A stretch of 6,313 nt of DNA from a virus. Taxonomy: Duplodnaviria; Heunggongvirae; Uroviricota; Caudoviricetes. The stretch lies in the IMG/VR virus record IMGVR_UViG_2700989519_000005, one strand, 5' to 3'. The translations under genes were made by a program, and so were the position numbers. Shown piece after piece: positions 332-577 of this stretch (position 1 is the first letter of the stretch; every line of letters starts with the position of its first letter). The notes below the pieces were generated by a model. The model had not been told where the DNA came from. It saw only the letters and a list, made by a program, of their open reading frames with translations, and made no database searches.

Positions 332-395
332 TATTAGCTCCTTCTGATGCCATTCTATTTCAGGAAGGAGTGTCCGTTAAACTCAGGCTACCTCA
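113..395 (-). mobile_element. IS3-family insertion sequence remnant: terminal region plus 5' part of orfA, truncated at its distal side
   Basis: An orfA-like ORF with a strong RBS (AAGGAG 8 nt upstream of the ATG at 329-331) is preceded by about 60 bp that on the minus strand begins TGAGGTAGCCTGAGTTTAACGGACAC at 395, consistent with the 5'-TG terminus typical of IS3-family ends. No orfB/DDE region is present; orfA codons give way to 23S sequence after about 73 codons. The exact boundary at 395 is inferred. Confidence 0.65.
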
Positions 396-577
396 CCCGT
401 CCCGGATACCGAGAACGTTTCGTCCAGCAACTGGAGAGAGTTCGACGGTGGCATCATTGCCCATGCCGGAGGCGCTGGAGGTTTCGGCTGAGGATGGCAC
501 AGGGCATTTTCCTTTGACGAGCACCCGACCACCATTATCAAGCTTGCGCCGAAGAGCATCATTTTCAGCTTTCGCAT
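383..577 (-). CDS. Rz1: o-spanin Rz1 (outer-membrane lipoprotein), embedded in the +1 frame of Rz; last few codons and stop lie in IS-derived DNA
   Basis: The 64-aa product [44 protein letters not shown]... resembles lambda Rz1: MxKLKMM start, lipobox VVGC, and a proline-rich PPAPPAW stretch. Start ATG 575-577 has RBS AAGGAG 7 nt upstream. The ORF ends 10 nt beyond the Rz stop, whereas lambda Rz1 is fully embedded in Rz. Confidence 0.75.

Follow-up and report, generated by a model that had tools for sequence, protein, structure and literature searches.

Saturating mutagenesis of lambda Rz has shown that nonsense mutations throughout its periplasmic domain are lysis defective (Cahill et al., PMC5295617). 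The last residue, R153, alone is dispensable, and the Q151X and C152X products are defective and fail to accumulate, which points to a strict chain-length requirement (PMC5295617). For lambda Rz1, nonsense codons distal to W46 give no lysis defect (PMC5295617). The C-terminal contact between the two spanin subunits involves residues 134 to 153 of Rz and 43 to 60 of Rz1 (PMC5295617).

The stretch of DNA analyzed here (the window; 6,313 bp) corresponds to an entire draft contig, LAHY01000253.1 (assembly GCA_001017305.1), both ends of which lie in repeats. Its sequence is the 5.8-kb remainder of a phage 21-like lambdoid prophage from Shigella flexneri, bordered by IS911 and IS600. In a megablast comparison with phage genomes, the R-Rz DNA of phages mEp460, PhiR47_1, PhiR40_1, and PhiR55_1 was ~95% identical to the window, the closest intact relatives being mEp460 (NC_019716.1; Rz is gp57) and PhiR47_1 (PV340566.1). 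Phages of the mEp460 type have a 155-aa Rz that ends ...GIRDG-IIRDQTALRTLQEYIRTQCLR and a 68-aa Rz1. The window proteins are ~92 to 94% identical to those of mEp460 and PhiR47_1 up to a break, beyond which the phage proteins go on. As in the lambda family, Rz1 lies fully inside Rz in the +1 frame, Rz carries an N-terminal transmembrane segment, and the lipobox Cys of Rz1 is followed by a proline-rich core. The first 83 residues of the window Rz are nearly identical to those of lambda Rz, with an identical N-terminus (23 residues), whereas overall identity is 70% and is far lower after residue 83. Unlike an intact lambda-family spanin, the window Rz is without its last 21 residues and the C-terminal Cys, and both stop codons come from IS600.

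All genes in the window are carried on the minus strand, and we describe them from the right edge leftward. An IS911 end, the one distal to orfA, occupies positions 6253 to 6313 on the plus strand, as judged from an alignment with S. flexneri locus L004 and a 100% match to the IS in locus L012. It lies 11 nt upstream of an IstB/DnaC-like replication gene (6241-5354), which is followed by a DnaB-like helicase gene (5357-3966), small open reading frames that include NinH, and the gene for antiterminator Q (3460-3044). Between Q and the holin gene, positions 2844 to 2534 encode four tRNAs, namely Met(CAT), Arg(TCT), Thr(TGT), and Gly(TCC); the tRNA genes of PhiR47_1 at the same place are Met-Lys-Thr-Gly, so that the second tRNA differs. 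In one strain, a group II intron (RVT_1 and GIIM domains) lies between Q and the holin gene.

The lysis cassette looks like that of phage 21. Its unbroken 71-aa holin (2241-2026) belongs to the phage 21 S family (Pfam PF04971, E 5.5e-35). Between the holin and endolysin genes lies a 209-aa open reading frame (2022-1393) that matched PHROG families of unknown function only (phrog_1085) and had no match in a Pfam search; mEp460 and PhiR47_1 differ here in having a shorter YdfR/DUF1327 gene. The gene for endolysin R (1327-794; 177 aa, Pfam Phage_lysozyme) is directly upstream of Rz and unbroken, and its product equals its intact-phage homologue, mEp460 gp56, in length. Endolysin R has a hydrophobic N-terminus (24 residues), which we take to resemble the signal-anchor-release segment of an SAR endolysin.

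Rz (797-393) begins at an ATG at 797 that overlaps the endolysin stop codon as ATGA and encodes a truncated i-spanin of 134 aa, identified by its reading frame and translation, profile searches, and alignments. Its N-terminal transmembrane segment is present, and its periplasmic domain matches the i-spanin profile. The match to Pfam PF03245 (Phage_lysis/Rz; E 2e-23) covers positions 1 to 104 of 126, compared with 1 to 125 for the intact Rz of mEp460, and the match to PHROG 13 (E 6e-64) covers positions 1 to 133 of 154. Rz1 (577-383), a 64-aa o-spanin lipoprotein, is embedded wholly within Rz in the +1 frame and has a signal sequence and a lipobox Cys (...VVGC). It matches Pfam PF06085 (E 4e-21) over positions 1 to 40 of 41, and an intact Rz1 does so over 1 to 41. 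Profile coverage is shortened for Rz and essentially complete for Rz1. A complete Rz C-terminus, comprising the end of the distal coiled coil and the Cys tail, is required in lambda for a functional complex to form (PMC5295617) and was absent from the window Rz by alignment, Pfam, and PHROG.

The junction reads ...GGT ATC CGG GAC GGG TGA GGT AGC CTG AGT T on the minus strand. Read in the Rz frame, this gives ...GIRDG and a TGA at 395-393, and in the Rz1 frame ...VSGTGEVA and a TGA at 385-383. Both stop codons, which the initial annotation had located to the exact base, are contained in TGAGGTAGCCTGAGTT; the Rz stop is formed by IS600 bases 1 to 3 and the Rz1 stop by IS600 bases 11 to 13. We placed the breakpoint at 396-397, base 397 being the last one in common with native Rz: the DNA alignment to intact phages is unbroken up to this base and fully diverged beyond it, and the intact proteins continue past the break. 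Measured against these homologues, Rz keeps 134 of 155 residues and is missing 21, including its only C-terminal Cys. Rz1 keeps 60 native residues followed by GEVA, in which G61 derives from the junction codon and E-V-A from IS600. These four residues stand in place of the eight-residue tail ESSETRQH of the intact 68-aa Rz1, which ends ...SVSGT-ESSETRQH.

The alignments agree with the initial annotation in that Rz is without its C-terminal segment (the last 21 of 155 residues), stops at a position equivalent to about residue 133 of lambda Rz, and overlaps an Rz1 whose C-terminus has been exchanged for IS-encoded residues. The broader claim that the IS cuts both spanin genes is right insofar as both stops are IS encoded, but Rz1 loses only a family-specific 8-aa extension. 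Similarly, the comparison with the lambda Rz C-terminus yielded a good residue estimate, but the appropriate benchmark is an Rz of the mEp460 type (155 aa, ...IIRDQTALRTLQEYIRTQCLR).

Window positions 395 to 111 (minus strand) correspond to bases 1 to 285 of IS600, a member of the IS3 family, and take in the left inverted repeat together with the 5' portion of orfA, whose ATG is at 331 (Pfam HTH_Tnp_1). This segment is 98 to 99.7% identical to IS600 and matches annotated copies of "IS3-like element IS600 family transposase." Like other IS600 copies (98 to 100% identity), it has a terminal inverted repeat that starts with TGAGG (TGAGGTAGCC...). In the IS600 copies of S. sonnei pSS_046, E. coli O121, and E. 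coli 90-3040, which are independent insertions, similarity to the window begins only at TGAGGTAGCC, and we therefore set the left end of the element (TGAGGTAGCCTGA...) at base 395. This boundary puts both stops inside the terminal repeat. As far as base 111, the window copy shows no difference from complete S. flexneri genomes (100% identity); only bases 1 to 285 are present in the window, whereas the same site in the identical complete genomes holds 1,264 bp with both orfA and orfB.

One base at the junction differs from the native gene. Base 396 is G in the window and A (GGA, Gly) in mEp460, PhiR47_1, and a second S. flexneri Rz fragment, and a clean cut-and-paste junction gives no explanation for it. 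It is either an older synonymous difference at a wobble position or a junction base; the protein is unchanged.

The top BLAST matches to the junction seemed to point to a target-site preference of IS600, as GGGACGGG recurs in an E. coli holin gene and TATCCGG..CG.G in E. coli O121. A survey of 111 distinct left flanks of IS600 in viral contigs was flat, the information content never exceeding 0.15 bits per position and every other flank agreeing at 5 of 8 bases or fewer, so that the resemblance among the top matches is an artefact of ranking, and we rejected such a preference. The "transposase | holin" junction of E. coli 90-3040 (H35) was likewise rejected as the same event, since there IS600 entered a holin gene independently.

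The open reading frames themselves are what would suggest that Rz and Rz1 of the mEp460-like phage type normally end at this point, with the IS lying just downstream. The intact 155-aa Rz and 68-aa Rz1 of mEp460 and PhiR47_1 run past the break, however, as does the second S. flexneri copy, whose 176 nt leading up to base 397 match the window at 100%, and both stops lie inside the terminal repeat of IS600. We consider natural short alleles virtually out of the question.

The left end of the contig is a different matter. Bases 1 to 110 (minus strand) are a fragment of 23S rRNA (Rfam RF02541, E 3.5e-17, approximately positions 2691 to 2825 of the LSU model), and bases 1 to 109 are 100% identical to annotated 23S genes, found at a median of 7 places per E. 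coli genome. This piece meets IS600 at IS600 base 285, an internal position, and the resulting chimeric 84-aa open reading frame (331-77, minus strand) occurs on this contig alone. In the identical complete S. flexneri genomes, normal IS600 sequence runs on past base 111, and the 23S/IS600 junction was found neither in any of the 5,426 complete E. coli genomes nor in these S. flexneri chromosomes. A true rrn rearrangement was rejected, as the junction lies inside IS600 and is unique to the contig; the most plausible reading of the fusion is a misassembly at the contig end, joining two multicopy repeats, rather than biology.

A 6,313-bp draft contig with both ends in repeats and a chimeric left 110 bases might harbor a similar assembly artefact at the Rz/IS600 junction. 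Eleven complete or long genome sequences, among them AE014073.1, nevertheless show the identical junction, as does the viral-contig collection, and the exact 134-aa protein has records on 279 contigs. These occurrences show that the junction is not an assembly artefact, a reading to which we give practically no credence.

We then considered the far end of IS600, which lies outside the window and is seen only in genomes that are 98.6 to 100% identical to it over 111-6313 or 111-6279. In all 11 loci that reach this end, IS600 has ...GGGACGGG as its left flank and AACTACTCATTGCC as its right; the element between them measures 1,264 bp, or more where another IS sits inside it. The right end abuts the middle of nu1 (AACTACTC...) in 11 of 11 loci. 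There, a 107-aa open reading frame in the right flank covers only positions 85 to 163 of the 164-position Nu1 profile and corresponds approximately to codon 62 onward of the 169-aa Nu1 of phage PhiR12_1. No 3-bp target duplication surrounds IS600 in the 11 genomes (GGG on the left, AAC on the right), and a pattern search of the IS600/nu1 loci did not find the rest of Rz (GG(A/G)ATCATCAG...).

A full-length IS600 that abuts mid-nu1 without a 3-bp duplication implies that about 1 kb has been deleted. Using PhiR12_1 and mEp460 as guides, we estimate a loss of roughly 0.8 to 1.3 kb, comprising the 3' ends of Rz and Rz1, the cos region, and the 5' part of nu1; that cos lay within this stretch is suggested by lambdoid genome layout. 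The deletion arose either next to one copy of IS600 or through recombination between two such copies. Since the flanks would then stem from ancestral phage sites about 1 kb apart, IS600 stands here without a target duplication; this fits either route and does not count against the identity of the element. The initial annotation had spoken of an IS insertion, and IS600 is indeed present from base 395, but the event was not a simple insertion and also involved deletion or IS600-IS600 recombination; the 3' ends of the two genes have been lost outright, not pushed 1.26 kb away.

A simple insertion would have split Rz and Rz1, leaving their 3' remainder beyond the right end and a 3-bp duplication. 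Such duplications are usual for IS600, being TGA in S. sonnei pSS_046 and GAG in E. coli O121 at two independent copies, and the window, which stops before the right end of the element, is by itself compatible with this account. In 11 of 11 loci, however, the right end is followed by mid-nu1 and not by Rz, there is no duplication, and the pattern of the Rz remainder is missing from those loci. A simple insertion is hence very improbable, and we retain an IS600 truncation accompanied by deletion.

What the truncation means for the spanin can be judged from lambda genetics, from which we infer loss of function. The segment of lambda Rz that contacts Rz1, residues 134 to 153, is precisely the part that the window Rz lacks, and by analogy with lambda the 134-aa Rz is very probably a null allele. 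The C-terminal halves of the window Rz and lambda Rz are divergent, so the lambda rules are carried over by analogy.

For Rz1, the break falls at the very end of the lambda protein: lambda R59 aligns with the retained T60, and the window Rz1 keeps all 60 residues that match full-length lambda Rz1, including the Cys and the proline-rich core. Because lambda Rz1 tolerates nonsense codons distal to W46, the window Rz1 is probably not inactivated, and the predicted spanin defect rests on Rz. We think the odds moderately in favor of a 64-aa Rz1 that would still be competent, though useless without its partner. It is conceivable, but clearly the less likely outcome, that both subunits were hit independently and that the GEVA exchange destroys Rz1 as well. 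The native tail, ESSETRQH, is charged and located at the Rz1 end facing the C-terminus of Rz, and lambda Rz and Rz1 meet through their C-termini (PMC5295617); against this, every position up to lambda R59 (T60) is kept, Pfam coverage is 40 of 41, and truncation distal to W46 is tolerated in lambda Rz1. The lysis phenotype predicted from spanin loss is in any case largely academic, as the remnant has lost cos and the N-terminal part of Nu1, and IS911 cuts it off from its early/immunity region.

Taken as a whole, the account that we favor, with high confidence, is one of IS600 truncation and deletion, yielding a predicted spanin null in Rz and a probably intact Rz1. IS600 lies in the Rz/Rz1 overlap directly after Rz codon 134. 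An element that begins TGAGGTAGCCTGA supplies an in-frame stop for Rz at once and for Rz1 ten bases further on. Since the element abuts mid-nu1, an IS600-associated deletion or recombination between two IS600 copies removed about 1 kb, and with it the last 21 codons of Rz, the last 8 codons of Rz1, the region of cos, and the 5' portion of nu1. The remaining Rz is without the end of the distal coiled coil and without the C-terminal Cys tail that contacts Rz1; having lost its C-terminus, it should neither accumulate nor build a periplasm-spanning complex, making it a spanin null. Rz1, which retains its whole conserved domain, is probably intact by itself.

The anatomy of the locus, the breakpoint, and the deletion are directly observed, as is the conservation of the lesion among S. 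flexneri genomes; the order of the events is an inference. CP007037.1 and CP020339.1 match positions 111 to 6313 of the window at 100% identity. Identity is 99.7 to 99.97% for another eight S. flexneri loci and 98.6% for CP178302.1 (over 111-6313 or 111-6279). The twelfth locus, L005, represents a shorter piece of CP178302.1 and falls outside the eleven full-length loci. A search for the exact junction returned S. flexneri SFBU1023 and a chromosome of 4.44 Mb that carries the label E. coli ECMA0423; starting from the exact 134-aa protein, we reached ten further complete or long sequences, including AE014073.1. This Rz has been deposited as AAN42327.2 and AAP16208.1 under the name "endopeptidase [Shigella flexneri]," and the exact 64-aa Rz1 is found on 88 contigs. 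The remnant of the S. flexneri reference genomes (e.g., AE014073.1) is the same locus, the sole difference being the chimeric 23S end of the draft contig. The initial annotation had read the locus as an IS-eroded prophage of a Shigella-like genome with an IS at the other edge as well; the matching S. flexneri chromosomes and the IS911 end at 6253-6313 uphold both points.

The IS911 edge, which is also the contig end, is more variable. The element in L012 carries the annotation "IS3-like element IS911 family transposase" in E. coli genomes. At this site, IS911 is found in opposite orientations among S. flexneri genomes (L004, ~1560-1650; L010/L015/L017), and its outer neighbor is, depending on the strain, a Toprim_2 gene or a host gene with a VTT domain together with the Rz fragment of another prophage. 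This variation in orientation and neighbors argues for inversion between IS911 copies. No 3-bp duplication was seen around IS911 in L012 (TTT versus GAC).

The second Rz/Rz1 fragment belongs to another prophage remnant (L012, 1051-1296, minus strand; also in L011, L014, and L016). Its 5' side is cut by the left end of IS911, its native 3' end (...GIRDGIISDQTALRMLQEYIRIQCLGG) is present, and its Rz1 is kept as a 63-aa stretch missing only the first 5 codons. As the fragment carries the native 3' end, S. flexneri holds two complementary, separately IS-truncated pieces of Rz. The fragment is 100% identical to window positions 397 to 572 over 176 nt; given this overlap, two copies of the Rz gene must have existed, and we rejected the idea that the fragment is the displaced 3' end of the window Rz. 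Other signs of erosion, the group II intron among them, vary among strains (L009, 4377-5798; L005, 1932-3226; L013 and L017, ~8800-10000). Some carry a second IS inside the IS600 copy, which from its terminal sequence we take to be of the IS629 type, and some loci have frame-disrupted terminase A or portal genes.

The lysis cassette is otherwise unbroken, with Q, the four tRNA genes, the phage 21-type holin, and the endolysin in place and the head genes lying beyond a co-oriented IS600. One could imagine that the cassette is kept as a domesticated module, serving partial, outer-membrane-sparing lysis or the release of vesicles or protein, rather than decaying as junk, and that Q-modified late transcription perhaps reads into IS600 and couples its transposase to prophage late-gene activation; we regard this as highly speculative and most unlikely.

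IS-driven gene truncation in prophages is a textbook kind of event in Shigella. Literature searches returned no paper describing the IS600-truncated Rz/Rz1 of S. flexneri, but the lesion is present in long-standing reference genomes and is of this familiar kind, and we therefore count it as already known and ordinary. The locus is another case of IS-driven prophage decay in Shigella and carries little weight beyond correct annotation. The 134-aa "endopeptidase" and 64-aa "Rz1" of S. flexneri should be flagged as products of IS600-truncated pseudogenes, and the 23S/IS600 fusion illustrates how the ends of draft contigs can look like rearrangements. Because it combines an Rz allele of a non-lambda family, naturally deleted at its C-terminus, with an Rz1 that is essentially intact, the locus could serve to test whether the chain-length rule established for lambda Rz holds more widely.
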